Below, in pieces: positions 14 to 13,232 of a stretch of DNA of 64,000 nt. Numbering within the stretch: position 1 is the stretch's first letter; every line of letters begins with the position of its first letter. The notes below the pieces were generated by a model. It was not told where the DNA came from, ran no database searches, and worked only from the letters and a program-made list of their open reading frames with translations. Both the position numbers and the translations under genes were made by a program. The DNA is from Candidatus Latescibacterota bacterium (lineage in GTDB: Bacteria > Latescibacterota > UBA2968), in NCBI GenBank assembly GCA_965116885.1, contig OZ220741.1, positions 4,160,001 through 4,224,000 of the forward strand, read 5' to 3'.

Positions 14-3000
14 ATGGGTGTCGATTATCTTGGCTTTCTGTCTAAGCAGCTTGGCGACCTTCGTGGTATAACAACGCTAGCACACGAGCTTATCCAAAAT
101 GCGGATGATGCGAAGGATGAATCAGGGGCGCTCTCTGCGACACGGATCACTTTTGATATCAATGACGATGCCCTGATTGTTAGTAATGATGCAGTCTTTA
201 GAGAAATTGATTTTGAACGGATGCAAAATGTAGCCAGTGGTTCAAAACGCAGCGAATCTGGAGTTCGTACTACTGGGGCATTCGGAATTGGCTTTATCTC
301 TGTATATCAAGTTACGGATAGACCAGAGATACACTCAGCAGGCCGTCGTTGGATCCTCCGTCCTGAAGCAGAAGAAGGCCGACGGATAGAAGAGTATAGC
401 GATTCTTTGATCACTAAAGATAATGGCACTGTTTTCCGACTTCCTTGGGCTTTTGGGGAATCCGAGGTACGCACAAAACTAAAAGTTCCTCCGGTTGATA
501 AAGATGCCCCTGATCTGTTTGTTAAGGAATTGAAGAACTCGTTGCCCAAAGCGATTTTATTCCTGAAGAAGCTTGAAAAGATTGAGTTATTTCGAAACGG
601 CAAACGTGTCATTCAAGTTACAAAAATTAAAAAAGAGAATGTAGTCGAAGTTAATTGTGATGGTGTAAGCCAAAACTGGCGGGTTATGCAGGGAACCTTC
701 CAAAATGAAGCCCTGGAACTAAAGAAGAAATTCCAATCGTATATTGAGGACAATCGCGAGGCCCAGGTTCAAATTGCTATCCCCGATACACTTCTCGCTG
801 ATGGATTGCTATTTGCAACATTGCCAACTGAACAATCAACAGGACTACCGTTTCACATAGACGCAGATTTTTTCCCTACTTCTGATAGGAAATCCATTGC
901 ATTTGAAGACATTAACATTATTGACCACCGATCTGAATGGAACCGTATGGCAATACGGGAAGCCGCATCCGTAATTGAAGCTAATCTGATTCCACTGCGA
1001 AATATGTTCAAAAATGATGCTTCAACATTTTGGGCTATCTTGAACAGTCTAAACCGCATATACCAAGAATACACAAACGACACACAGAAGCCGTTTGCTA
1101 CGTTTTGGAAGGTATTGCATCCATTGCTAAAAGCTTCACAAATCGTTTACACCGAATCAGAAAAATGGCTTACTCCTGACGAGACCCGCATTCCAACAGG
1201 TGAGAAAGAAGAAGAGGCTATCCCTATATTCAAAGCTCTAAACATTGAGATAGTCCATCAAGACCTAAAGAGATATCGCAATATACTGAGAAGCAATGGC
1301 GTAGGTGTGCTGAGAGTCAACGATATTTTTGAATCACTCCAGCACGAAGGATTGACCAAACATCCCAAGTGCGTTCCTTCAGACTTCCAGACTCCTGAGC
1401 AATTGGAACTGCTATGTAGAGGAATTTACGGGATACTTGAAAACACTCAGGGAGAATCAGCAAAGGAAGAAGCTAAAAAATTGTTGCGCCATTGCGCATT
1501 GGCTCCGGGGCTTGACGGACACCTCTGGCCATGTGGTTCAGTTTATCAAGCTGATGAGCACACCCTTAAAATCTTCGCTAATCTGATACCCGCCGATGTC
1601 TCGTTCTTAGCCGTAGAGGGGATACCTTTATTCAAAGAACTCTGTCCTCAATTCAAGGCCGGAAATGCTATTAAAGAGTTAGAGCGTCTGGAGACTGTGA
1701 AACTTCAGAGAGCTTGGAGAGACGACCATTTCGATCCTTCTACTGTGCTTAAATGGTTCGATAGCTATAAGAAAGAGCTATCCGAAAATGAAGAATTACC
1801 CAAAAGACTCGCAAAAATCCCCTTATTCCCATCCGCAGAAAGGCTATGTTCATTGGAAAATTTGTATCTACAGGGAGGATTCTCTGACCCAATAGGAGAA
1901 GCCGATCTTGTGGATATGAGACAACTCAAAGGGCTTTCAGATTTCCTGAAATTTTTGGGTGCCAAAGAACTCACATTCATAAACTATGCAGAACGCTACA
2001 TTCCAAGAGCGTTTGATGCTAATAAGGATACAAGTTTGGAAGCTAAATGCAAGCTTCTGGATATTTTGGCAACCCGCATCGGTGAGGTTCGGGAGAATGA
2101 CTGGCTACGGAATAAGCTCACTGAAGCAAACATCGTTGAATGTACAGACGGTGAGTTTCATCAACCAGAGCAAGTTTACTTCCCTCGCAAAGAAGTCAGA
2201 GCAATCTTTGAGGATTTTGTTCATTATGCCTGCCTTACCAAAAAATCGGAGAGCAGGAAGGACCTCTATCGCTGGCTGGGTATCGCAAGTCGCCCTCGCC
2301 CCTATGACGTATTGCGATTTATCGACAAATTAACGAACAAGCCACCTAATCAAAGCTCCATACAGGTAATAAAGAGAGTCTTGAAGGCTGTAGGGAACGC
2401 CTGGGATAGAATACCTGAAGATGAGAAGCAATCCTATGATCCTCTGAAAAATAAGAAATGGCTCTTGGCCGATGAATCAACTAAAAAATGGTACTGCCCC
2501 AACCAACTATACGCCGCTTACAATAAGAGCCTTTTCGAATCACAGGCGAAGTTTATTGATCTAACCGTACCAATACAGCAAAAAATCCGAGATTTCCTCG
2601 AATACCTGGGAGTCAATCTTAGACCACAGCCCTCTCAAGTGGCTCAACACCTACTCAAGTGCTCCAAACTTGATAGAGAACCCCCGAAAGGCATTTATCA
2701 GTGGCTGAACAATAGTGAGCAATCCCAGGACATCTATAAGTTAAAGAATTTCGCCTGTCTTCGTATCCAAGGTAAATATCTCCGTCCGGACCAAGTCTTC
2801 TGGGGACAGCATTATTTTGGCAGATTCCGCGTCCAATTGGGGACGGACTTTCTATCATATCAGAATCTACTCCAAACACTTGGTATCAAGGAGTCACCCG
2901 ATTATAGTGATGCATTTGAAGTATTGAAGGACATCTCAACAGCAATAGGCAATAATCGATTGAAGCCAGAGGACAAAACCGTTGTAACCCATTGCTGGAT

Positions 3001-4666
3001 CATGCTAACCGAGGCACTCCAAAGCGAACAACTCGATTCAGCAAGCATACAAACTGAATTACATAGTATCCAATGTGTGCCAAATCTTGACAATATATTG
3101 TACCTGCCGTCCAGAATATTCTTTGAAGACCGTCCTCGCCTCGCAGACAAATTCTCTGAACCACTCGAAAAACATACGATTCCACGTAAAGAAGGCATTT
3201 TGCAGGCACTAGAAGCTGCCGGAGTTAGGCCAATCTCAGATATAGTAAGAGGATTTATAGATGAATCTGTAAACTCGCAGGAAGACGAGATGCTGAAGAC
3301 ACGAGTCATAGAGCGTACTGATCTCATTAGAACTATCTCAAATGATACGGTCCAACTTGACAGTATCCGCTTTCTACGCACGAATCAACTCAAGGTAAAA
3401 TGGTCTCTTAAGGACTTTATCCACGACTGGCCGCCTACTTCACCTGAACCGGTCGAGGCCCATTTGGATGGAGATGAGCAGGCTATCTATTTTGTTTTAC
3501 GAAATGGTAATATTCGCCCATGGCCAGCTATTGCCCGTGAATTAACTCAGTTAATCGCTCCAAGGAAGGAAATTGGGGCCATTTCCCCTGGACTTAAGAT
3601 AATTCTGGAAGCATCTACCTACGAAGATGCGGTAGAGCAACTCAATGATTTGGGCATAGCTCTTACTGAAGAACTGAGAAATCTGGCAAAAACAGGAAGA
3701 GTTGCAAAAACATTTGACGAGAAACCTTCCAGTGAAAATCAGGAATTATCCGATTCTTCACAGAATGGAGTAATGTCAAGTAGCGGCATTGAAAAGACTC
3801 ATCAGAATGAATTGGAAGACGAAGATGATGTAAGCGGCCATACATCCGATACTACGTCCAATCCGACTATCTCAGACAGCAATGGTACGGAATATAGCAC
3901 AGAGAATAATAATGAAAAATCAGATGGTATTGATAGAAATGGTCACACCAAAGGAGAACAGGAAGAGAATACCGAAGATGATGTTAAAGATGGCAAAACT
4001 ACGATGACTCGTGATCCGAAAAGCGGACAAACTACAGATAATGTTAAGGATCAGAACAACAGTAATGGTACGAGTCAGAAGGAATCAAATCGTTCAAACG
4101 GACTGAACAGACCGAGACCCGAAACAGGTCGGGCGGCAGAGGATTGGCTCGAAAAAAGGCTCGAACAAGTGTTCCCAAACTGTGTACAACGACATATTAG
4201 AGATAAAGCAAATAGAGAAAGTGATTTTGTTGTTTTATCCGGTAGCTGCAAGTTTCATATAGAGGTCAAACATGTGGCAAATTGGCCAGGAACATTTTAT
4301 TGGTCCGAACTCGAATGTGAAAAAGCTCAACTCCTCGAAGAGAGTAATGATGAATATATTATGGCAATCCTTTCTCCCAACGGAGGCAGAGAGTATAAAA
4401 TACATTGGATCTGGCATCCACTCGATGAATTGAAAAGCGCATCTCGAGAGGTCCAATGGACAGGTAACAGCGATTATGAACTGGTGGACGCCGATTCTTG
4501 GGATGTCGAGACACGGAGACCTGACGAAGTTCCCACAAAACGACACAGATTTCGTATCAAGCTGGACGGCGAAGCCGTCAAGGGATTTGAGGAAGACACG
4601 GGGGGGCTTGAGGCATTGTGCAGAAAGATTGATAGTGTGAATGCTGAGATGGGAATAGAGTCATAA
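14..4666 (+). CDS. Sacsin-like GHKL ATPase protein with C-terminal DUF3883 (NO VEIN)-like PD-(D/E)XK nuclease domain
   Basis: N-terminal ELIQNADDA, GAFGIGFISVYQVTDRPEIHS and LPTEQSTGLPFHIDADF match the sacsin-type GHKL/S5 module. An acidic low-complexity linker is followed by GRAAE...SDF...IEVK...FYWSELE. The frame is open to the window edge, so the true start may lie upstream. Confidence 0.8.
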   Translation: MGVDYLGFLSKQLGDLRGITTLAHELIQNADDAKDESGALSATRITFDINDDALIVSNDAVFREIDFERMQNVASGSKRSESGVRTTGAFGIGFISVYQVTDRPEIHSAGRRWILRPEAEEGRRIEEYSDSLITKDNGTVFRLPWAFGESEVRTKLKVPPVDKDAPDLFVKELKNSLPKAILFLKKLEKIELFRNGKRVIQVTKIKKENVVEVNCDGVSQNWRVMQGTFQNEALELKKKFQSYIEDNREAQVQIAIPDTLLADGLLFATLPTEQSTGLPFHIDADFFPTSDRKSIAFEDINIIDHRSEWNRMAIREAASVIEANLIPLRNMFKNDASTFWAILNSLNRIYQEYTNDTQKPFATFWKVLHPLLKASQIVYTESEKWLTPDETRIPTGEKEEEAIPIFKALNIEIVHQDLKRYRNILRSNGVGVLRVNDIFESLQHEGLTKHPKCVPSDFQTPEQLELLCRGIYGILENTQGESAKEEAKKLLRHCALAPGLDGHLWPCGSVYQADEHTLKIFANLIPADVSFLAVEGIPLFKELCPQFKAGNAIKELERLETVKLQRAWRDDHFDPSTVLKWFDSYKKELSENEELPKRLAKIPLFPSAERLCSLENLYLQGGFSDPIGEADLVDMRQLKGLSDFLKFLGAKELTFINYAERYIPRAFDANKDTSLEAKCKLLDILATRIGEVRENDWLRNKLTEANIVECTDGEFHQPEQVYFPRKEVRAIFEDFVHYACLTKKSESRKDLYRWLGIASRPRPYDVLRFIDKLTNKPPNQSSIQVIKRVLKAVGNAWDRIPEDEKQSYDPLKNKKWLLADESTKKWYCPNQLYAAYNKSLFESQAKFIDLTVPIQQKIRDFLEYLGVNLRPQPSQVAQHLLKCSKLDREPPKGIYQWLNNSEQSQDIYKLKNFACLRIQGKYLRPDQVFWGQHYFGRFRVQLGTDFLSYQNLLQTLGIKESPDYSDAFEVLKDISTAIGNNRLKPEDKTVVTHCWIMLTEALQSEQLDSASIQTELHSIQCVPNLDNILYLPSRIFFEDRPRLADKFSEPLEKHTIPRKEGILQALEAAGVRPISDIVRGFIDESVNSQEDEMLKTRVIERTDLIRTISNDTVQLDSIRFLRTNQLKVKWSLKDFIHDWPPTSPEPVEAHLDGDEQAIYFVLRNGNIRPWPAIARELTQLIAPRKEIGAISPGLKIILEASTYEDAVEQLNDLGIALTEELRNLAKTGRVAKTFDEKPSSENQELSDSSQNGVMSSSGIEKTHQNELEDEDDVSGHTSDTTSNPTISDSNGTEYSTENNNEKSDGIDRNGHTKGEQEENTEDDVKDGKTTMTRDPKSGQTTDNVKDQNNSNGTSQKESNRSNGLNRPRPETGRAAEDWLEKRLEQVFPNCVQRHIRDKANRESDFVVLSGSCKFHIEVKHVANWPGTFYWSELECEKAQLLEESNDEYIMAILSPNGGREYKIHWIWHPLDELKSASREVQWTGNSDYELVDADSWDVETRRPDEVPTKRHRFRIKLDGEAVKGFEEDTGGLEALCRKIDSVNAEMGIES

Positions 4667-4668
4667 CT

Positions 4669-4788
4669 CTATCGACTAATGAGGTCCAATATGAGCCGAA
4701 ACTCTTAGGCGGAGATAATGGCCACCAGATTGTCGATCTTTGATGTCCTTCAACTTGAAAGCACGCGGTAGAGATATTCGCAGTTCAA
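4669..4788 (-). pseudogene. Relic of an addiction-module antidote (HTH antitoxin) gene, copy 1
   Basis: Minus strand reads LNCEYLYRVLSS*RTSKIDNLVAIISA*EFRL with two in-frame stops, resembling the LNRESLYRALS...NPxLxT...ALGxRL antidote C-terminus. 60/77 identical to 8163-8239. Confidence 0.65.
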
Positions 4789-4802
4789 CCGGTCCTTAGA
4801 AG

Positions 4803-5630
4803 TCAATACTCATTTTCTGCCATAGCTTCTTCTAAATCAGGAATGTCAGGCACAAGCAAAGTCAAAAACTTCCCGTTGTATCCTAACTCGATAACTGATT
4901 CTGTAGCTCCAATCTCAAAGGGTAAATCATCAAACCACTCGTCGAGTGATATGGGGCAGGCATCTTCTTCTTTGCGACCATTGATATAATCATAGGTAAG
5001 GGTGGTTCCTTTTACCGGTTTTTTACTGAGAAAATCCTGTTTATACGTTTCTTTCATACGGTTAGAACGCTGTTCATACTCAATGAGTCCTTCCTCATTA
5101 CAAACCACAAGTGTACAGGCAAGATCTGTAAGTTCTATAAAACGTAGCACAGCGGCATATGACGAAATACCAAAATGCTCAGATAATTCCAATATAGTTT
5201 CCTTCGTATATTCCTTATACCTCATCGCGGTCTGAAATGCTTTCTTGGGAGCTAAGAAACAAATGGCAAAGTAGTCGGCTTCTCGTTCAATTCGCTCTTT
5301 CGACTGAAATTCGCACTTGGATCGATGCAGTCCTGCTGTTTCCAACATTCGCCTGTGCTCCGGAATATTAATGTGTCCCAACTCATGGGAGAGTGTAAAC
5401 CTGTGGAATTTGTTGCTCCAGAAATGGTCACTATTAAATCCAATCAGATAGTTGCCACCTCCCAATGCTTTGGAAAATCCAGAAAAATCATCTCCGAATG
5501 ATTTCTCCAGGTAGCGATATTCAGATTTCTGAATCTGATCAACAATATCTTCGATAACCTCGTTATCACCAATTGCCATGTTTTCCCGAAGTTGGGCCGC
5601 ATGTGCTGCTATTGATTGTCGCAAATTCAT
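4803..5630 (-). CDS. ImmA/IrrE-family Zn metallopeptidase, CapP-like
   Basis: RFTLSHELGH (HExxH), EREADYFA and an HTH-like FGISSYAAVLRF; 275 aa; overlaps the stop of the upstream HTH gene. Confidence 0.85.
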   Translation of the reverse strand: MNLRQSIAAHAAQLRENMAIGDNEVIEDIVDQIQKSEYRYLEKSFGDDFSGFSKALGGGNYLIGFNSDHFWSNKFHRFTLSHELGHINIPEHRRMLETAGLHRSKCEFQSKERIEREADYFAICFLAPKKAFQTAMRYKEYTKETILELSEHFGISSYAAVLRFIELTDLACTLVVCNEEGLIEYEQRSNRMKETYKQDFLSKKPVKGTTLTYDYINGRKEEDACPISLDEWFDDLPFEIGATESVIELGYNGKFLTLLVPDIPDLEEAMAENEY

Positions 5631-5956
5631 CTTATACCTCTTTTTCTAACCTGTTCGTTCTGCTTTAGTATTACTACATATTCATTAATCTTATTAAGTG
5701 TGTCAGGCGATAAATCCCGTATATTTCGCATTAACAACGTTTTTTCAAACTCTCCTTTATCTTGTCCAGCTAGATCCACTTCGAGTATATTTAAAATCTG
5801 AGCAAACTTGCGAATATTGGCTGGCGTTGGCATTCTTAGACCTTTCTCAAACTGGGAAATCGAAGCCTGAGTCAGCCCTATAGCCCTTGCCAATTCTACT
5901 TGGCTCATACCCTTGTTTATCCGTGCCCTCCTGAGTCGTTCTCCAAATTCTGACAT
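5627..5956 (-). CDS. XRE-family HTH repressor, CapH-like
   Basis: FGERLRRAR..MSQVELARAIGLTQASISQFEKG..P; 109 aa with a C-terminal helical tail; AGGAG RBS; translationally coupled to the peptidase. Confidence 0.9.
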   Translation of the reverse strand: MSEFGERLRRARINKGMSQVELARAIGLTQASISQFEKGLRMPTPANIRKFAQILNILEVDLAGQDKGEFEKTLLMRNIRDLSPDTLNKINEYVVILKQNEQVRKRGIR

Positions 5957-5973
5957 GACTTTTCTCCTTTTTC

Positions 5974-6026
5974 TTGACGAAATAAATTTATGTGTTATAT
6001 TATAGCACCATCTTATGAAAATTCAA
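5974..6026. promoter_or_regulatory. Overlapping divergent sigma70-like promoters with candidate operator
   Basis: Plus strand TTGACG-N16-TATATT (5974-6001); minus strand TTGAAT-N16-TATAAT (6026-5999); palindrome ATAAATTTAT at 5982-5991 within the plus-strand spacer. Confidence 0.5.
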
Positions 6027-6072
6027 GGGTCAATTCACAACCCATTGTCTTGAAATTGAAAGGAGTTGCCTC

Positions 6073-6465
6073 ATGGCTCGCATATTCATCAGTTTCGCGA
6101 TAGAAGACCGAATCCTACGGGATTTTCTCGTTGGTCAGAAACGGAATACACGTAGCCCCATTGTTTTCACTGATTATTCTGTGAAAGAACCGTGGTCATC
6201 AAGATGGAAGACGAATTGTCGCCAAAGAATAAGATCCTGCGCTGGAGTGATAGGAATTATTACAAAACATACATCAAAAGCAGATGGACAATTGTGGGAG
6301 TTGAAGTGTGCGATTGAAGAAAATGTGCCCTCAATTCTCATTCATGGATACAGGGCACCTCAAAAAAGACTATCTATACTCCCCTCAATCATCAGAGGTC
6401 GTCGCGTCAATATCTGGACTGAAGATAACATTGTCAACTTTCTTAACAAGTTCTCAGGGAGATGA
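6073..6465 (+). CDS. TIR-like domain protein (ThsB/MTH538 DUF1863-type)
   Basis: RIFISFAIED, DYSVKEPW, and GQLWELKCA with the putative catalytic Glu; strong AAGGAG RBS. Confidence 0.85.
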   Translation: MARIFISFAIEDRILRDFLVGQKRNTRSPIVFTDYSVKEPWSSRWKTNCRQRIRSCAGVIGIITKHTSKADGQLWELKCAIEENVPSILIHGYRAPQKRLSILPSIIRGRRVNIWTEDNIVNFLNKFSGR

Positions 6466-6469
6466 TACG

Positions 6470-7468
6470 ATGAAAAAAGCTCTTATAGTTGGAATTGATA
6501 ATTACGATCCACCCAATGCATTGGGTGGATGCGTGAATGACGCAGTAGAGGTGAGTAGGGTCATAGAAATGAACGAGGATAGATCGCCAAACTTTGATGT
6601 TCGGTACATGATTAGTAGCGAGAGTGGTGTAACTAGCCAAAGGTTAAACGAAGCATTAAAAGAATTGTTCTCTGGTCAAGCAGAAACAGTAATCTTTTAT
6701 TTTGCTGGGCATGGTATCATCGATGATGTGGCCAATGATGGCTATCTAGTTACTCAAGATGGAAGTGAGCCTAATTGGGGTATTTCTTTATCCCATATCC
6801 TCGAAATGGCCAATAATTCTCATCCTAAAATCCAATCTACGGTGATTATTTTGGATAGCTGTAATTCAGGTTTTGCAGGAGAAGTGTCCGGCCTGGGGCA
6901 AGGTGATGCCACCCCTTCAATAATCGGAAATGGCGTGACTATACTGACGGCCTGCCATCGTCAAGGAACAGCGGCAGAGTCAAATGGACACGGAACATTT
7001 ACGTCAATTATTCTGGATGGATTGCGCGGTGCGGCCTGTGATGTCATTGGCCGCATAACGCCAGCTTCCCTTTATGCTCATGTGGATCAGACTCTTGGAG
7101 CATGGGAGCAACGTCCTATCTACAAGGCGAATGTTCAGAGTTTTATCACCCTGCGTGAAGTCAGCCCTAAAGTACCTTTAGAGGTGCTTCGTAGGCTTCC
7201 AGAATATTTTCCGAATTCTTCAGATGTATTCAAACTTGATCCAACTTTCGAACCGGACCGTGGGGAGAAAGCTGACTGTTTGAAGAACATCCCTATCAAT
7301 GAGGACAACGTAACTATCTATCGGGAACTTCAGCAGTGCAATCGTGTCAATTTGGTCGTACCAGTAGGCTATGATCATATGTGGCATGCAGCCGTGTTTT
7401 CAGGAGGGTGCAGACTGACCGCCACTGGAGCCCATTATCGCAAATTAGCCAAACTCAATAGAATTTAG
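6470..7468 (+). CDS. Caspase-like protease (peptidase C14), type IV Thoeris-like effector
   Basis: Start reassigned to MKKALIVGIDNY after a GGGAGA RBS; LGGCVNDA; His-Cys dyad FYFAGHG and ILDSCNSG; GTFTSIILDGLRG. Confidence 0.9.
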   Translation: MKKALIVGIDNYDPPNALGGCVNDAVEVSRVIEMNEDRSPNFDVRYMISSESGVTSQRLNEALKELFSGQAETVIFYFAGHGIIDDVANDGYLVTQDGSEPNWGISLSHILEMANNSHPKIQSTVIILDSCNSGFAGEVSGLGQGDATPSIIGNGVTILTACHRQGTAAESNGHGTFTSIILDGLRGAACDVIGRITPASLYAHVDQTLGAWEQRPIYKANVQSFITLREVSPKVPLEVLRRLPEYFPNSSDVFKLDPTFEPDRGEKADCLKNIPINEDNVTIYRELQQCNRVNLVVPVGYDHMWHAAVFSGGCRLTATGAHYRKLAKLNRI

Positions 7469-7478
7469 GGAGGTACCA

Positions 7479-7961
7479 ATGCCGATTAAAGTATTCATAT
7501 CGCACAAAGACTCTGATGCAATAATTGCCGAAAGCGTTAACAGACGTATTCGTAGGAATGGACTGGAAACATATCTTGATGTTATCGACGACGCTCTTGG
7601 GAAAGATGGACCAGACCTCGCAGATCATCTTTTAAGTAGGATGGGGGAGTGCCAGCAACTTGTGGCTGTTGTTTCATCCTCCACCAAAGATTCTTGGTGG
7701 GTACCGTGGGAGATTGGTGTCGGCGCAGAGAAGGGATTTCTAATGGCGAGCTTTTCATATAGCCATGTTCAGTTGCCAAGCTATCTTGAAAAATGGCCTG
7801 CTCTTCACTCTGATCGTGATATTGATCTTTATTGCCGATATTCAAGGCGGACAGATGCAGAGATTGGCAGGAGATATTGGCTCACAGAACAACAAAAATT
7901 TTCCCTTCGCAAAGACGAAGCCCTTAATTTCCATAAACAACTACGTACTGCTTTGGGTTGA
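7479..7961 (+). CDS. TIR domain protein (TIR_2/ThsB-like)
   Basis: KVFISHKDSD, YLD, and SWWVPWEIG with the catalytic Glu; GGGAGG RBS 10 nt after the caspase stop. Confidence 0.9.
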   Translation: MPIKVFISHKDSDAIIAESVNRRIRRNGLETYLDVIDDALGKDGPDLADHLLSRMGECQQLVAVVSSSTKDSWWVPWEIGVGAEKGFLMASFSYSHVQLPSYLEKWPALHSDRDIDLYCRYSRRTDAEIGRRYWLTEQQKFSLRKDEALNFHKQLRTALG

Positions 7962-8137
7962 TAGAGTGTCTGAAGACTACCCGATATCAGGTACTACTGA
8001 ACCATTAATCCCAAGTGCAGGTCCGTCAGAATGGATAAAAAATGAAGGATGATTGACATACTCAAAATCAATTGATTATGCTAAATATCTGGGCAAGATA
8101 AAGTTATGCATCCGAATAGCTTTTCCGTTGTCCTGTA

Positions 8138-8239
8138 CTACAACTTGATACAATCTAACCTCAGCCGAAACCCCAGAGCAGAAATAATAGCCATCAGGTT
8201 GTCGAGCTTCGGTTTGCTGCGACTTGAAAGCACGCGGTA
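8138..8239 (-). pseudogene. 3' fragment of an addiction-module antidote (HTH antitoxin) gene, copy 2, cut by IS3
   Basis: Minus strand reads YRVLSSRSKPKLDNLMAIISALGFRLRLDCIKL*; the fragment ends exactly at the IS3 left end (8240). Confidence 0.7.
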
Positions 8240-8294
8240 TGGACTTGACCCGTTTTGGTGGGTACCTTATCAGTAATCAGAAAGGAGCCCTACT

Positions 8295-8606
8295 ATGCCA
8301 CCAACACGTCCACCTTATCCAGCCGAGTTGAAGCACCAAATCATCGAGCTTGTGCGCGCTGGTCGCTCTCCGGCTGAACTGGCCAGAGAGTTTGAGCCGA
8401 CCGCTCAGACCATCCAAAACTGGATACGCCAAGCTGATCGAGATGAAGGACTTCGAGAAGACGGCCTGACCAGTTCTGAGCGAGAAGAGTTGCGTGTTCT
8501 TCGACGTGAGAACAAGCAGTTGCGCATTGAGCGCGAGATACTCTCAAAAGCAGCAGCCTGGTTCGCAGCGGAGACCGACGCGATCCCAAGAAAATCTTCG
8601 CGTTGA
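8295..8606 (+). CDS. IS3 transposase OrfA
   Basis: HTH plus leucine zipper ELRVLRRENKQLRIEREILSKAAAWFA. Confidence 0.9.
   Translation: MPPTRPPYPAELKHQIIELVRAGRSPAELAREFEPTAQTIQNWIRQADRDEGLREDGLTSSEREELRVLRRENKQLRIEREILSKAAAWFAAETDAIPRKSSR
8546..8550 (+). other. Probable programmed -1 frameshift motif A-AAA-G
   Basis: A -1 shift at AAAAG gives an open frame KSSSLVRSGDRRDPKKIFALIKAHQ running into orfB, as in IS3 itself. Confidence 0.65.
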
Positions 8607-9454
8607 TAAAAGCGCACCAGGCACTTTGGCCTATCGCCACGCAATGCCGAGTCTTGGGTGTCTCCCTCAGCGGGTATTATGCCTGGCGAGCACGTCCACC
8701 CTCTAAACGAGCAAAGGTTGATGTGGACCTGAAGAAGCATATCGAAGCCTTTCATACCCGATCAGATGGTACTTATGGTGCCCCTCGCATTTGGAAAGAT
8801 CTGATGGATATAGGCATCCTTGTAGGCAAGAAGCGCGTGGCGCGTCTGATGCGTGAGATGGGTATTTGTGGCATAAGCCGCAGAAAGAGCACGCAAACGA
8901 CGTGTAAGGTGCAACAGTCTGATAAGGCTCCCGATCTGGTCAAGCGTGACTTTGCTGTGGCAACGGTCAATAAACTCTGGGTAGCCGACATCACCTACGT
9001 ACCCACTTGGTCGGGCTTCTTGTATCTCAGTGTTGTCATAGATGCCTTCTCCCGCCGCGTCGTGGGTTGGGCAATGGCAACACACCTGCAAAGTGAGTTG
9101 GTCTTGTCAGCTTTGAATATGGCCCTTTACCAGCGTCGTCCCGAAGGCGTGATCCACCACTCTGATCAGGGGGCGCAATATACCTCCATCGCATTTGGAG
9201 AGCGTTGTCGTGAAACTGGCGTACGTCCTTCAATGGGGGTTGCTGGCGACTGCTATGACAACGCGCTGTGCGAGAGCTTCTTCGCCACGCTTGAATGTGA
9301 ACTGATCAATCGCCGATCCTTCCGTACGCACAAGGAAGCCCGCTTGGCTATCTTCTCCTACATTGAAGGATGGTATAATCCACATCGCAGGCATTCTTCC
9401 ATCGCCTACTATGCGCCGATAGCTTATGAAAAACTGCATCTATCACGGGCTTGA
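8603..9454 (+). CDS. IS3 transposase OrfB (DDE integrase core)
   Basis: WVADITY, HHSDQGAQY, DNALCESFF, YNPHRRHS. Confidence 0.95.
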   Translation: MIKAHQALWPIATQCRVLGVSLSGYYAWRARPPSKRAKVDVDLKKHIEAFHTRSDGTYGAPRIWKDLMDIGILVGKKRVARLMREMGICGISRRKSTQTTCKVQQSDKAPDLVKRDFAVATVNKLWVADITYVPTWSGFLYLSVVIDAFSRRVVGWAMATHLQSELVLSALNMALYQRRPEGVIHHSDQGAQYTSIAFGERCRETGVRPSMGVAGDCYDNALCESFFATLECELINRRSFRTHKEARLAIFSYIEGWYNPHRRHSSIAYYAPIAYEKLHLSRA

Positions 9455-9505
9455 TACACAAGCCCTAAACTCTCCACCGAAGCGGGGTAACTCCAATACT
9501 ACTGC

Positions 9506-9645: not shown

Positions 9646-10161
9646 TTGAACTATCAAAGCCTATACTGGGATGCCTTAATGCAACTCAGGGCCAGTGTTT
9701 ATTATTTACAAGCCTATCAGATACACTCTGAAAAATGGGATAACAGGATACAGATATTTTTGGCTATTACCTCCAGTTCAAGCATTGGTGGATGGGTTAT
9801 TTGGAATGAATATGGCATAATTTGGGGGTGCGTAATTGCCGTCTCACAAGTGATCAATGCCATCAAGGGATTTTTGCCATTTCAGAAACGAGCTAAGCAG
9901 ATCGGGAGCCTTAATACAGAAGTGGAAAAGTTGGCCTTGGATGCAGAAAGCCAGTGGTATTCGGTATTTGAAGGCAAACTTACCGACGAGGATATTTTCA
10001 ACCTCGTCACCAAACTAAAGCAGCAAAAACTGGAGGCATCACACAAGCATTTCAAAGATCAAGCTCTACCGACAAAATCAAAGTACATCACCGAAGCAGA
10101 GGAACGAACAAGGGCCTATTTTCAGACCTATATAAAGGCCTTTACAACAGGAGAGAGTTAA
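9646..10161 (+). CDS. Two-TM membrane protein, SLATT-like
   Basis: N-terminal helix, two hydrophobic segments (IQIFLAITSSSSIGGWVIW; IIWGCVIAVSQVINAI), then FQKRAKQ and a helical C-terminus; TTG start. Confidence 0.55.
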   Translation: MNYQSLYWDALMQLRASVYYLQAYQIHSEKWDNRIQIFLAITSSSSIGGWVIWNEYGIIWGCVIAVSQVINAIKGFLPFQKRAKQIGSLNTEVEKLALDAESQWYSVFEGKLTDEDIFNLVTKLKQQKLEASHKHFKDQALPTKSKYITEAEERTRAYFQTYIKAFTTGES

Positions 10162-10162
10162 A

Positions 10163-10396
10163 ATGGCTAAAAAAAAGAATTCCATGAGAAAAGAAGAACC
10201 ATCAGGGAATAGACGGACCTCAGCTACGTCCACTAAGCGAGACACCCGCCTAGTGTTCCAAAGCGAAGATCGGAATATACCTACTTTCGACGTAGGTCTC
10301 CCCATGCCCCAAGCAGCTAAGCCTCCTAAAGAAAGTGATGGAGCAGACTTGTCGCCAAGTCAGAGAGAGAAATCTTCGCCAGAGAAGCCTTCTTAA
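10163..10396 (+). CDS. Small hydrophilic hypothetical protein
   Basis: AGGAGAG RBS within the end of the previous gene; low complexity; followed by a hairpin. Confidence 0.45.
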   Translation: MAKKKNSMRKEEPSGNRRTSATSTKRDTRLVFQSEDRNIPTFDVGLPMPQAAKPPKESDGADLSPSQREKSSPEKPS

Positions 10397-10448
10397 GTGT
10401 ATCTTCAATGCGATGTGTTAATTTAATTTTAGATTGCGTTAATTTTAA

Positions 10449-10490
10449 CAAAAGACGGCCTTGAGTATTTGATCACTCAAGGCCGTTTGT
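10449..10490. terminator. Hairpin, probable terminator
   Basis: ACGGCCTTGAGT...ACTCAAGGCCGT flanked by A/T runs. Confidence 0.6.
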
Positions 10491-10727
10491 GTACTCAAGG
10501 TGGTGCGGTGTAAAACCGTTTGGTGCATCTTTGGATTGACCTGGGTGGCTACGGGATTTGTCAGGCACGGTACACAATTTTTGAGTATAATAATCTTTAT
10601 ACTCAAAAATGACCTTGAAAACCCCTGTTTTTTCGAGCAAATTGCAGATAGACATTTATCATTATATACAAAAAGAGGAGGGGGCGATTCGCCCGGTTCG
10701 ACAGCGCATCTATGGAGACACGACGCG

Positions 10728-10994
10728 ATGAAGAGAACATTGACTATTGACTACGGTAGCGAAGTCCTGCTGGCCCTCGGATATACACCTAAGCAGTTCA
10801 GCGAAGAGGCCAAGATCCTCATCGCCGTCAAGCTCTACGAGTTAGGCCGTTTGTCCTCGGAGGGAGCAGCCAAGCTGGCCGGCATTCCCAAGCCCTTATT
10901 TCTGACAAAGCTCGCCGAATACGGCGTCGATACCTTCCAACTGACTGAGGACGACCTCCAACAGGACTTAGATAGTGCCCGTCGTCATCTGTAA
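10728..10994 (+). CDS. UPF0175-family antitoxin-like protein
   Basis: Start reassigned to MKRTLTIDY after GGAG; AVKLYELGRLSSEGAAKLAGI...FLTKLAEYGV. Confidence 0.85.
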   Translation: MKRTLTIDYGSEVLLALGYTPKQFSEEAKILIAVKLYELGRLSSEGAAKLAGIPKPLFLTKLAEYGVDTFQLTEDDLQQDLDSARRHL

Positions 10995-11004
10995 TACTTC
11001 TCCA
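10975..11004 (+). pseudogene. First 10 codons of a DUF3368/PIN-type toxin
   Basis: GTG-PVVICNTSP overlaps the UPF0175 stop and matches the VIxNTSPL start of the usual partner, then similarity ends. Confidence 0.55.
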
Positions 11005-11018
11005 GATGGGAAAACAGC

Positions 11019-11627
11019 ATGCATATTTATATTGTATTCGCGCACCCGAGTAGGCGATCTTTTACGGGTGATGTGCTTGTAGAATTTTGTCGTGGGTTGG
11101 AGGATGGGGGCCACTCGTATGAGATAGGTGATTTGTACGAAATGGATTTCAGGACTGATATGAGTCTGGACGAATACAACCGGGAGATGAATGTGTATGG
11201 CAATCGTCCGGATTTGCCCGTTCCCCCTGATGTGCAAGCTGAACATGCAAAGATTGAGAAGGCTGATGGCTTGGTGTTCGTATTTCCAAATTGGTGGAGT
11301 GATTGTCCGGCAAAATTGAAGGGATGGTTTGATCGGGTCTGTGTCTGTGGATATACGTATGTGTATGAGAACGAGGAATATCCGATGTCTGGACTCGAGG
11401 TTGATAGGGCATTGGTCTTGTGTACTGCGGGTCACACATGCGAGCATCTCGAAGAAACCGGTATTTTGGAGAGTATGCGGTGTATTTATCTCAATGATCG
11501 CCTTCGCCCTGAAATAGGCGTGGCATGGACGGATATGGTTGTGTTGGGAGGTATGGGAGAAGTCGAAGAGAGTATAAGGCAGGAGAATCTCGTAAAGGCT
11601 TATCAGTTGGGAAAGGAGTTTTGCTGA
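11019..11627 (+). CDS. NAD(P)H-dependent oxidoreductase, flavodoxin-like (MdaB/KefF family)
   Basis: VFAHPSRRSFT, DLYEMDF, ADGLVFVFPNWWSDCPAKLKGWFDRV. Confidence 0.9.
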   Translation: MHIYIVFAHPSRRSFTGDVLVEFCRGLEDGGHSYEIGDLYEMDFRTDMSLDEYNREMNVYGNRPDLPVPPDVQAEHAKIEKADGLVFVFPNWWSDCPAKLKGWFDRVCVCGYTYVYENEEYPMSGLEVDRALVLCTAGHTCEHLEETGILESMRCIYLNDRLRPEIGVAWTDMVVLGGMGEVEESIRQENLVKAYQLGKEFC

Positions 11628-11665
11628 AAGTATTCCGTCTATATGTTTGTCCACCAGATATTTAG

Positions 11666-11700
11666 CCCCACAAGTTTAATTGATTTTGTGGGGATTTTTT
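11666..11700 (+). terminator. Rho-independent terminator
   Basis: CCCCACAA...TTGTGGGG followed by a T run. Confidence 0.6.
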
Positions 11701-11816
11701 ATTTTTGCTAAACTATTTTTTTTGAAAAACATTTGATGTGTTTGACTGAGCGTCGTATTATTGGGAAAATGAATGTGTGATCGGTAAAGCTAAATTAACG
11801 ACTGAAAAGGTATAAC

Positions 11817-13232
11817 ATGCGCAGAGCGAAAATTGTGAGTACACTCGGGCCCGCGAGTTCTTCGGCGCGCGTGATAGAGCAACTGATTGGGGCGGGGGTG
11901 GATGTTTTTCGGCTCAATTTTTCACACGGCACGCGGGATGAACATGCGGAGAATGTTGGACGCATTCGGCAGATTGCGGATAACATGCAGCGCAGTGTTG
12001 CCATTTTGCAGGATTTGCAAGGTCCAAAAATGCGGGTGGGGAAACTCGCAGAGGATCCGATTGAGTTGAAGGAAGGCAACAGGCTGACGGTGACGACCCG
12101 CGAAGTGCCGGGCGATGCCGAGTGCGTATCGACAACTTATGCGGGGTTGCCCCGAGATGTGAAGCCCGCGGATCGCATTTTGCTCGATGACGGGCATATC
12201 GAGTTGATTGTGCGCGAGGTCTATCGCTCGGATGTCGTGTGTGAGGTTGTGGTGGGCGGGCTGTTAAAATCCAATAAGGGCATCAATTTGCCCGGTGTGC
12301 GTGTCAGCGCGCCTTCTCTGACAGTCAAAGACCGGGAGGACCTGGATCTGGGGATCGAATTGGGTGTGGATTATATTGCACTGTCTTTTGTGCGGGAACC
12401 CGACGATGTGCGAGAGGTTCAACATATTATTGAACGGGCAGAGAAGGAGATCCCCGTTATTGCAAAGCTGGAACGCGCTGAAGCCGTCGATCACCTCGAA
12501 GATATTCTCGATGTTGCCGACGGCGTGATGGTTGCGCGGGGCGACCTGGGCGTGGAATTATCACCTGAAGACGTACCGGTGATCCAGAAACGCGTGATTT
12601 CGGCGGCCAATCGCGCGGGGGTGTTTGTGATTACGGCCACGCAGATGCTGGAGTCGATGACCGATCACCCACGGCCCACGCGCGCCGAGGCGTCAGATGT
12701 GGCCAATGCAATTTTCGACGGCACCGATGCGGTGATGCTGTCTGGCGAGACCGCGATTGGTAAATATCCCGTTCAAACCGTGCAAATGATGGCGCGGATT
12801 ATTGAGAAGGCAGAAGCAAGTGTGGAACTCGCCCCGCCAATTTTAAATCTGGATGCATCGCTCTCTTTCCCAGATGCTATAGGGCAAGCCGCTGCTGCGG
12901 TATCGACTGCGGTATCTCCCAAAGCCATTGTCGCATTTACCCAGTCGGGATCTACAGCGCGTCTGATTTCAAAGCGCAGACCGCGCACGCCGATTATTGC
13001 GTTTACGCCCAGCGAGCGGATATGTCGGCGGTTGTGCTTGTGCTGGGGGGTTGAACCCCGTCAAATTACGCTGATCGACGATACGGATCGCATGGTAGCG
13101 GAAGTTGAAGCGCGTTTGCTCTCTGAGGGCAATGTGCGTTTCGGAGATACGCTGGTGATCCTGGCCGGTGCGCCCATCACGGCGCGTGCCGAGACCAATT
13201 TGTTGAAATTGCATCGGGTTGGGGAAATATAG
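11817..13232 (+). CDS. pyk: Pyruvate kinase
   Basis: KIVSTLGPAS, RLNFSHG, DLQGPK, VARGDLGVE, ATQMLESM, PTRAEASDVANA, MLSGETA. Confidence 0.98.
   Translation: MRRAKIVSTLGPASSSARVIEQLIGAGVDVFRLNFSHGTRDEHAENVGRIRQIADNMQRSVAILQDLQGPKMRVGKLAEDPIELKEGNRLTVTTREVPGDAECVSTTYAGLPRDVKPADRILLDDGHIELIVREVYRSDVVCEVVVGGLLKSNKGINLPGVRVSAPSLTVKDREDLDLGIELGVDYIALSFVREPDDVREVQHIIERAEKEIPVIAKLERAEAVDHLEDILDVADGVMVARGDLGVELSPEDVPVIQKRVISAANRAGVFVITATQMLESMTDHPRPTRAEASDVANAIFDGTDAVMLSGETAIGKYPVQTVQMMARIIEKAEASVELAPPILNLDASLSFPDAIGQAAAAVSTAVSPKAIVAFTQSGSTARLISKRRPRTPIIAFTPSERICRRLCLCWGVEPRQITLIDDTDRMVAEVEARLLSEGNVRFGDTLVILAGAPITARAETNLLKLHRVGEI

Follow-up and report, generated by a model that had tools for sequence, protein, structure and literature searches.

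The window analysed here, a 64,000-nt stretch of contig OZ220741.1 from a Candidatus Latescibacterota bacterium (assembly GCA_965116885.1), carries between positions 4803 and 7961 what is probably an abortive-infection system of the type IV Thoeris kind, in which two TIR proteins would act as sensor/synthases and a caspase-like protease as effector, placed under a divergent CapH/CapP regulatory cassette. All five genes are intact, and each open reading frame (ORF) lies where the initial annotation had put it (Table 1); that annotation described three tightly packed genes facing away from a coupled helix-turn-helix (HTH) and HExxH peptidase pair across 116 bp. The capP and capH genes overlap by 4 bp, and the gaps between the genes of the operon are 4 nt and 10 nt. 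The caspase ORF as listed begins at a GTG at 6308; we place its start at the ATG at 6470, because the resulting 332 aa fit homologues of 330-333 aa. The ORF list contains no integrase or phage gene within the regulator and Thoeris module.

Table 1. Features of the regulator and Thoeris module and of its borders; positions are those of the window.
Feature	Position	Strand	Description
Direct repeat, left copy	4685..4770		86 nt, 76% identity to 8154-8239
capP	4803..5630	-	275 aa, HELGH; M78 zinc metallopeptidase with peptidase, HTH and GAF-like domains
capH	5627..5956	-	109 aa; XRE-type HTH repressor with C-terminal domain
Divergent control region	5957..6072		116 bp between capH and thsB-1
Candidate CapH operator	5973-6003		conserved block, imperfect inverted repeat
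Cassette/cargo breakpoint	~6043-6072		just before the ribosome-binding site
Ribosome-binding site GGAG	6062-6065	+	upstream of thsB-1
thsB-1 (TIR1)	6073..6465	+	130 aa; short PsTIR-like TIR, predicted signal synthase, catalytic Glu76
Caspase-like effector	6470..7468	+	332 aa; Peptidase_C14, His81/Cys131
thsB-2 (TIR2)	7479..7961	+	160 aa; TIR_2 type, catalytic Glu78
Direct repeat, right (native) copy	8154..8239		conserved single-copy backbone element; IS3-family insertion at 8239/8240
IS3-family insertion sequence	8240-9499		orfA/orfB 8295-9454; inserted exactly at the right repeat end

The operon is a type IV Thoeris operon, as the initial annotation had proposed and as profile, structure and synteny tests agree. 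The rule by which Rousset et al. detect such systems, a caspase profile with TIR_2 or ThsB within one gene (10.1101/2024.10.24.620036), captures the window caspase together with the adjacent TIR2. The caspase matches Pfam Peptidase_C14 (4.3e-16) and the PADLOC caspase profile (4.9e-18) and belongs to a family of at least 6572 homologues (7999 candidates scored), the top 120 of which stand at 63% identity or more. TIR2 matches Pfam TIR_2 (6.6e-8; 33.5 bits against a cut-off of 28), PADLOC ThsB (7.9e-14) and, among PDB sequences, the TIR protein 8btn (4.1e-5). TIR1 is weak by profile, with no Pfam match at E≤0.01 and a PADLOC ThsB score of 0.0028, and we therefore modelled its structure. The AlphaFold2 model, built on a 49-sequence alignment, had a predicted local distance difference test (pLDDT) score of 90.4 and a predicted template-modelling (pTM) score of 0.86, and a Foldseek search of the PDB returned TIR/ThsB structures first (8fz9 at 3.3e-6, then 8wcf, 8v6t, 6lhy and the SARM1 TIR). 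The WE motifs of the TIR proteins and the HG/DSC dyad of the caspase, both pointed out in the initial annotation, proved to be real and conserved: Glu76 of TIR1 is kept in 71/73 sequences, Glu78 of TIR2 in 34/35, and His81 and Cys131 of the caspase, along with many residues of its C-terminal third, are invariant in 24/24. Far from the window, the genome carries another gene with a C14 caspase domain (2485464-2486120, in an open frame of 532 aa).

Inspected by eye against the printed sequences, and with no identity computed, TIR1 shares with PsTIR (PMC13243611 Suppl. Data 1) the motifs FAIED near the N-terminus, SVKE, GQxWE (which holds Glu76) and a C-terminal W..DNI, all in the same order. In the same way, the caspase runs collinearly with PsCaspase and EcCaspase from end to end, C-terminal domain included, with FAGHG, LDSC (Cys131), YAHVDQ, QRP..K.NV, LDP..EP, HMWHAA and RLTA common to the three. 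The catalytic Glu and Cys positions are nearly equal to those of the type IV Thoeris systems described from Pseudomonas sp. 1-7 and E. coli; the window residues fall 2-3 positions from PsTIR E79 and PsCaspase C129, and mutation of either of these (E79Q or C129A) is reported to abolish defence (Rousset et al., 10.1101/2024.10.24.620036). The operon described there has two genes, whereas the window has three, with a TIR_2-class TIR after the caspase, as well as CapH/CapP upstream.

A third gene is no peculiarity of the window. Our synteny sample took one genome per species and comprised 80 loci spread over many phyla, with caspases 51-72% identical to that of the window; the six-frame ORFs of these loci were searched with the window proteins. 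TIR1 followed by the caspase was the order at 36 loci, and the order of the window, TIR1-caspase-TIR2, was seen at 23 (21, plus two with an extra TIR1 after it); TIR2-TIR1-caspase occurred at six, caspase-TIR2 at two, TIR1 followed by a broken caspase at one, and the caspase alone, as judged by these queries, at 12. A TIR1 homologue stood directly upstream of the caspase at 65/80 loci. Since 23/80 loci share the window order, we call TIR-caspase-TIR a common subtype of type IV Thoeris, and the nearest relatives (L005 to L012) mostly have the three-gene form too. Seven of the 12 caspase-alone loci (L013, L027, L036, L046, L049, L077 and L079) carry a Pfam ThsB_TIR gene upstream, and two more, L015 and L017, begin at a contig end. 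ThsB_TIR (PF08937) is a third TIR class before the caspase, missed by the window TIR1 and TIR2 queries except at L077; therefore at least three TIR classes pair with the same effector family. A distant-mode BLASTN search of complete E. coli genomes with Klebsiella-type TIR1-caspase DNA (L043) gave no match. In other Thoeris types, several ThsB proteins widen phage recognition, and Thoeris systems with several TIR genes have been described before; we read the two TIRs of the window as two sensor/synthases that would feed one effector.

Across the control region, the HTH protein and the M78 peptidase form a genuine CapH/CapP pair. The initial annotation had called this a CapH/CapP-like switch, and PADLOC profiles, the Foldseek match to Thauera CapP and the divergent layout all agree with it. 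capP matches Pfam Peptidase_M78 (1.6e-12) and PADLOC capP (2.6e-38, profile positions 31-240 of 242), and a search of PDB sequences returned a single match, the CapP entry 7t5t (4.5e-7). Its AlphaFold2 model (alignment of 40 sequences, pLDDT 93.9) shows the predicted three-domain fold of peptidase, HTH and GAF; the top Foldseek match was Thauera CapP (7t5t; 7.7e-14, TM 0.67, 287 aligned columns), and the next best were IrrE/PprI structures, including the single-stranded DNA (ssDNA) complex 8sln, with all three domains covered. The zinc site H82/E83/H86 and the downstream Glu ligand E115 are invariant in 61/61 relatives. The zinc-ligand loop equals that of Thauera CapP in length and has no conserved cysteine. 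Three other loop residues, encoded at ~5319-5357 on the minus strand, are near-invariant (H92 and H102 in 61/61, S104 in 60/61); in a pairwise alignment to 7t5t the switch cysteine of Thauera CapP adjoins H102, and a histidine in the switch role is a possibility.

capH matches HTH_3 of Pfam (2.5e-16) and PADLOC capH (3e-14, profile positions 6-101 of 103); a search of PDB sequences found no match to any CapH entry at E≤0.01. Its C-terminal domain holds an M/Y/F-Arg motif kept in 16/16 relatives, which in the window is M76-R77. Because this motif sits where cleavage of E. coli CapH, between F82 and R83, has been described, we propose the bond between M76 and R77 as the candidate cleavage site. 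The architecture follows the published one: overlapping, co-directional capH and capP genes diverge from their cargo, CapH is an XRE HTH protein with a C-terminal domain, and CapP combines an M78 peptidase with HTH and GAF domains. The pair also lies upstream of the immune operon and on the opposite strand in the five closest relatives within the phylum.

The control region contains a plus-strand promoter at 5974-6003 (TTGACG, a spacer of 16-18 nt, and TATATT/TATTAT) and a minus-strand promoter at 6026-5999, each agreeing with the consensus at 10/12 positions and each known from that match only. Promoter-like sites are not enriched across the region as a whole (12 versus 8.5 ± 2.6 in shuffles). 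The only strong plus-strand promoter, however, falls inside a conserved cassette block beside the capH start. When we aligned the window with three related cassettes (L102, L103 and L104) using MAFFT, the block at 5973-6003, which spans the operon -35 and -10, was conserved in all four, and a second block at 6016-6035, which holds the -35 of the capH promoter, was common to the window, L102 and L103 and weaker in L104. The overlapping promoters of the initial annotation are consensus matches, and both lie in sequence blocks conserved in related cassettes. An AATATAA-N9-TTATATT repeat is present in L104 and, by eye, in L102, and is imperfect in the window; our guess is that CapH binds at 5973-6003. 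Such an operator would overlap the promoter, in contrast to that of E. coli MS115-1, which is described as lying upstream of the -35 (Lau et al., 10.1101/2022.04.27.489752). Two other candidates were discarded, namely a palindromic operator (in the window, a repeat search gave only 6019-6027/6049-6057) and a conserved hairpin of the 5' untranslated region at the junction, the stem register of which differs between cassettes.

The cargo does not share the history of its cassette. We searched 168 genomes of the phylum with thresholds of E≤1e-10 for CapP and E≤1e-20 for the caspase, and found CapP relatives in 18 and the caspase in three, at 47% and 41% identity in the other two. By BLASTN, the capP-capH-promoter cassette (4796-6003) has 84.6% DNA identity to a same-genus cassette and 79.8% and 68.0% to two other cassettes of the phylum, whereas 6073-7855 has 62-68% identity to Thoeris operons of Rhodobacterales, Pirellulaceae and others. 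The cassette homology stops at 6003 and the Thoeris homology begins exactly at the TIR1 ATG at 6073. The alignment blocks common to the sister cassettes end upstream, and together with the start of Thoeris homology this places the breakpoint at ~6043-6072. Within the module the GC content is 0.40-0.46; the backbone, taken beyond 12 kb, has 0.50-0.56.

The relatives of the cassette face other cargo. In a genome of the same genus (CapP 84% identity), the cargo consists of a gene pair (76 aa and 125 aa) that is present twice, together with a ThiF/E1 protein; in a second genome (78%) it is a 390-aa protein with an E1-E2-JAB-patatin fusion of 1183 aa, and in a third (66%) a DUF6791-ThiF protein. 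The neighbours of two further CapH/CapP pairs (46%) are small ORFs that carry no annotation, one of them weakly matching DUF3892, and additional HTH_3 genes. The ubiquitin-like (Bub), CBASS-related and DUF3892 classes to which these cargoes belong have been published for CapH/CapP before. In the same-genus sister cassette L102, the cargo at 9740-12689 (plus strand) comprises tandem 76-aa and 125-aa pairs with no family match, followed by a 490-aa ThiF/E1 protein, and is probably a Bub-like ubiquitination operon. Because homology to Thoeris of other phyla begins exactly at the TIR1 ATG and the sister cassettes drive other cargo, the sequence comparison indicates that Thoeris arrived by a cargo swap behind the regulator cassette.

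The pairing of regulator and operon recurs outside the assembled genome. Contigs from two public runs of two studies cover 4700-8100 with no differences, and one of them may have supplied the genome. A third run yields a contig of 1129 nt at ~88% identity that spans 5787-6910 and shows 138 differences; a contig of 2714 nt from a sponge metagenome, at ~91%, extends over 5554-8099 and shows 237. Since both diverged contigs span the capH-TIR1 junction, the arrangement of capH divergent from TIR1-caspase-TIR2 exists in diverged relatives, and the initial annotation, which had allowed that the regulator pair might never accompany TIR-caspase operons elsewhere, can be answered on this point. To the left of 5554 the sponge contig jumps to 4708-4736, so that most of capP (4737-5553) is seemingly missing; this could be a deletion variant or an effect of assembly.

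We also surveyed by Pfam up to two upstream ORFs per type IV Thoeris locus (133 ORFs of 74 loci, and L069 in addition). L032 (Acidobacteriaceae) has a divergent HTH_3 and M78 pair (PADLOC capP 2.8e-7), and two Bradyrhizobium loci, L067 and L069, have PADLOC capP matches of 1.7e-44 and 1.1e-39 upstream of TIR1-caspase(-TIR2). In the latter two, at 3609-5342 and 3721-5337 respectively (both minus strand), capP is followed by ORFs of 140 aa and ~181 aa with no family match and with no XRE capH, and the three minus-strand ORFs diverge from TIR1-caspase-TIR2; the extra ORFs may represent another CapP-type substrate or regulator, or an artefact of ORF calling in high-GC DNA. LexA-like S24 repressors stand upstream at 5/75 loci (L023, L029, L031, L037 and L041), ~100-1400 bp from TIR1, with L037 prophage-like and a terminase nearby, and a divergent WYL protein at 1/75 (L055), together with DUF2188. 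Three loci have genes of DUF2188 or DUF3892 type in the interval from regulator to operon, among them L029 with DUF2188 and L031 with DUF3892. As raw counts, these S24 and WYL proteins suggest convergent DNA-damage control of type IV Thoeris.

Upstream of the module, a plus-strand gene at 14-4666 encodes a 1550-aa sacsin/GHKL-like protein, the Tiamat protein TmtA (PADLOC PDLC03969, E=0, 1079 bits; Pfam SACS 4.2e-23). Because this gene converges on capP, we regard the locus as a defence island, which is also the setting described for the type IV Thoeris of Rousset et al.; in the window the neighbour is Tiamat. The 86-nt direct repeats bracket the regulator and Thoeris module. The right copy was matched in 9/20 same-genus genomes, at 90-93% over the full 90-nt query in eight and over 75 nt at 95% in the ninth (G078), and the left copy is 80-84% identical to this single-copy element as it occurs in genomes of the genus. 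In relatives the element lies ~600 bp before the homologue of window 11009-11903, and one relative has a left flank that maps immediately ahead of the window start. Since the flanks of relatives map around them, TmtA and the module (~8.2 kb) occupy a variable hotspot, and the 86-nt repeat may mark a site of recombination or integration. Considered as an RNA gene or an att structure, the repeat gave no Rfam match and no folding signal (z -0.84 to +1.61). The IS3-family element has two other full copies in the genome (100% and 90% identity), from which its limits were taken, as well as many fragments. Beyond it, a 171-aa ORF at 9646-10161 (plus strand) has a weak SLATT-like PADLOC match (0.0012).

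Gene identities, architecture, cassette homology and cargo swap are read from the DNA, and homology with characterised systems predicts each of the biochemical steps that would connect them. CapH would dimerise on 5973-6003, over the operon -35 and -10, and keep the operon, and probably capH-capP too, at a low level. Single-stranded DNA arising from DNA damage, prophage induction or phage replication would activate the CapP metallopeptidase, which would cut CapH in its C-terminal dimerisation domain, probably between M76 and R77, and so derepress the operon. On phage sensing, TIR1 and/or TIR2 would turn NAD+ into a cyclic ADP-ribose isomer, by homology N7-cyclic ADP-ribose, and binding of this signal to the C-terminal domain of the caspase would lead to promiscuous cleavage after arginine and to cell death or arrest.

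Several observations weigh against this scheme. E. coli CBASS is reported to protect against a lytic phage without CapH/CapP (Lau et al., 10.1101/2022.04.27.489752), and the benefit of the switch is therefore in doubt. The sole cysteine of the CapP loop, C106, is found in 1/61 relatives, with Ser at this position in 38/61; as it is unique to the window protein among the 61, it was ruled out as a cysteine switch, and a CapP that lacks this switch may be held off less tightly, as published for IrrE. The inverted repeat of the candidate operator is imperfect, and a second promoter/operator-like block of ~45 bp, present in the three related cassettes, is absent from the window, which suggests simpler control than in the sister cassettes. 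The likeness to PsTIR, PsCaspase and EcCaspase was judged by eye. Only 3 of ~75 type IV Thoeris loci (L032, L067 and L069) have a regulator of the peptidase type upstream, which makes the association rare, and a hidden Markov model (HMM) of CapP run over 82 loci found an M78 protein at three, L067, L069 and L076, the last being an RmrA-like HTH-M78 fusion downstream of the operon. A metagenome scan with the CapP alignment recovered distant M78 proteins only (23-37% identity), with TIR or caspase nearby at 0/80 loci, and no RNA run is among the 10 runs listed for the locus.

These points must be set against the alternatives. The HTH/M78 pair could belong with the mobile-element or stress modules typified by ImmR/ImmA and IrrE/DdrO and be a neighbour by chance, the operon being constitutive. 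The families are indeed related, the module sits in a variable hotspot beside an insertion sequence and between the 86-nt repeats, and such a pair is missing from the majority of type IV Thoeris loci. Yet capH and TIR1 are just 116 bp apart, the only strong plus-strand promoter belongs to the conserved cassette block, the module is free of integrase and phage genes, the best HMM and structure matches are to CapP, above IrrE, and every one of the nearest related cassettes is likewise divergent from cargo of immune type; we consider a chance association very unlikely. A regulator pair that does govern the operon might instead answer to a phage protein, zinc or redox, or CapP might be constitutive and set a steady-state level. 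In favour of this stand the invariant H92, H102 and S104 of the switch loop and the missing cysteine switch, since IrrE, which likewise has none, is described as cleaving its substrate without ssDNA and depending on free zinc. The cysteine switch is optional, however, being present in 134/408 CBASS-associated CapP and absent from 67% (Lau et al., 10.1101/2022.04.27.489752); the structural match to CapP and to ssDNA-bound PprI takes in all three domains, and all three Cap regulator families characterised so far sense ssDNA. A cue other than DNA damage or ssDNA, or a constitutive CapP, is distinctly unlikely.

TIR2, too, may be read in another way. It might be a modulator, whether a hydrolase or buffer of the signal or a decoy against phage inhibitors, or it might make another signal for a distant effector. 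TIR2 is of a different class from TIR1, is optional (a homologue at 35/80 loci) and is variable in position (downstream of the caspase at 25 loci and upstream of TIR1 at six). Against this, its catalytic Glu is retained in nearly every homologue, several ThsB genes per system are a known pattern in Thoeris, and the published EcTIR and PsTIR also differ in class, with metabolites of EcTIR cells reportedly used to activate PsCaspase. We therefore regard such a role as rather unlikely and favour two synthases that would serve one effector.

Both modules, and the principle that joins them, have precedents. In published accounts, CapH/CapP regulate CBASS, DISARM, Bub and DUF2188/DUF3892 operons (10.1101/2022.04.27.489752; 10.64898/2026.05.16.725639), and the window differs from them in having type IV Thoeris as cargo and no cysteine switch. 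The pair CapK and CapS (PMC13373217) is DNA-damage-responsive and, like the pair of the window, is found next to type IV Thoeris, at 12/443 capK loci, but it consists of a kinase and a phospho-substrate in place of a peptidase and a cleaved repressor; the same source re-reads 'Cap' as 'Controller of associated/adjacent pathways'. IrrE(PprI)/DdrO of Deinococcus and ImmA/ImmR of ICEBs1 and phages follow the same logic, in which a damage-activated M78 peptidase cuts an XRE repressor. They control DNA-repair regulons or the excision of mobile elements, whereas the pair of the window adjoins an immune operon, and CapP outscores IrrE as a match to its peptidase in HMM and structure comparisons. We found no paper that joins CapH/CapP and Thoeris, in line with the initial annotation, which knew of no characterisation of the pairing; the papers on these regulators mention Thoeris solely to illustrate protease effectors or in connection with CapK/CapS. 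The supplements of the two preprints (Rousset and Lau), which lay outside the search, may list such loci, or type IV operons of three genes. The novelty is modest and lies in the combination.

The locus leaves knowledge of the individual modules unchanged. What it adds is a mapped cassette swap, the TIR-caspase-TIR arrangement as a common subtype, and a hint that type IV Thoeris has come under the control of damage sensors repeatedly. It is a clean natural example of how immune operons gain stress-gated expression: cassettes that are 80-85% identical drive three unrelated abortive-infection cargos in related genomes, with the breakpoint mapped to ~30 bp. A broader idea, possible though we hold it doubtful, is that the cassette is a portable plug-in, recombined within one genus and phylum, at a fixed junction close before the ribosome-binding site of the cargo, onto unrelated suicide systems (ubiquitin-like, CBASS-related and type IV Thoeris), and that type IV Thoeris has been placed repeatedly and convergently under damage sensors that differ in mechanism: CapH/CapP in the window and L032, capP with another partner in Bradyrhizobium, LexA-like S24 repressors, WYL, and the published CapK/CapS. 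DNA damage would then lead to death by caspase in a bacterial pathway attuned to the induction of prophages more than to lytic infection. The layout, in which a DNA-damage sensor stands over a caspase-like executioner, can be compared with damage-induced apoptosis. Should the predicted switch prove right, these loci would allow one to test why damage gating is confined to a minority of suicide systems, and whether two TIRs widen the range of phages that is sensed.

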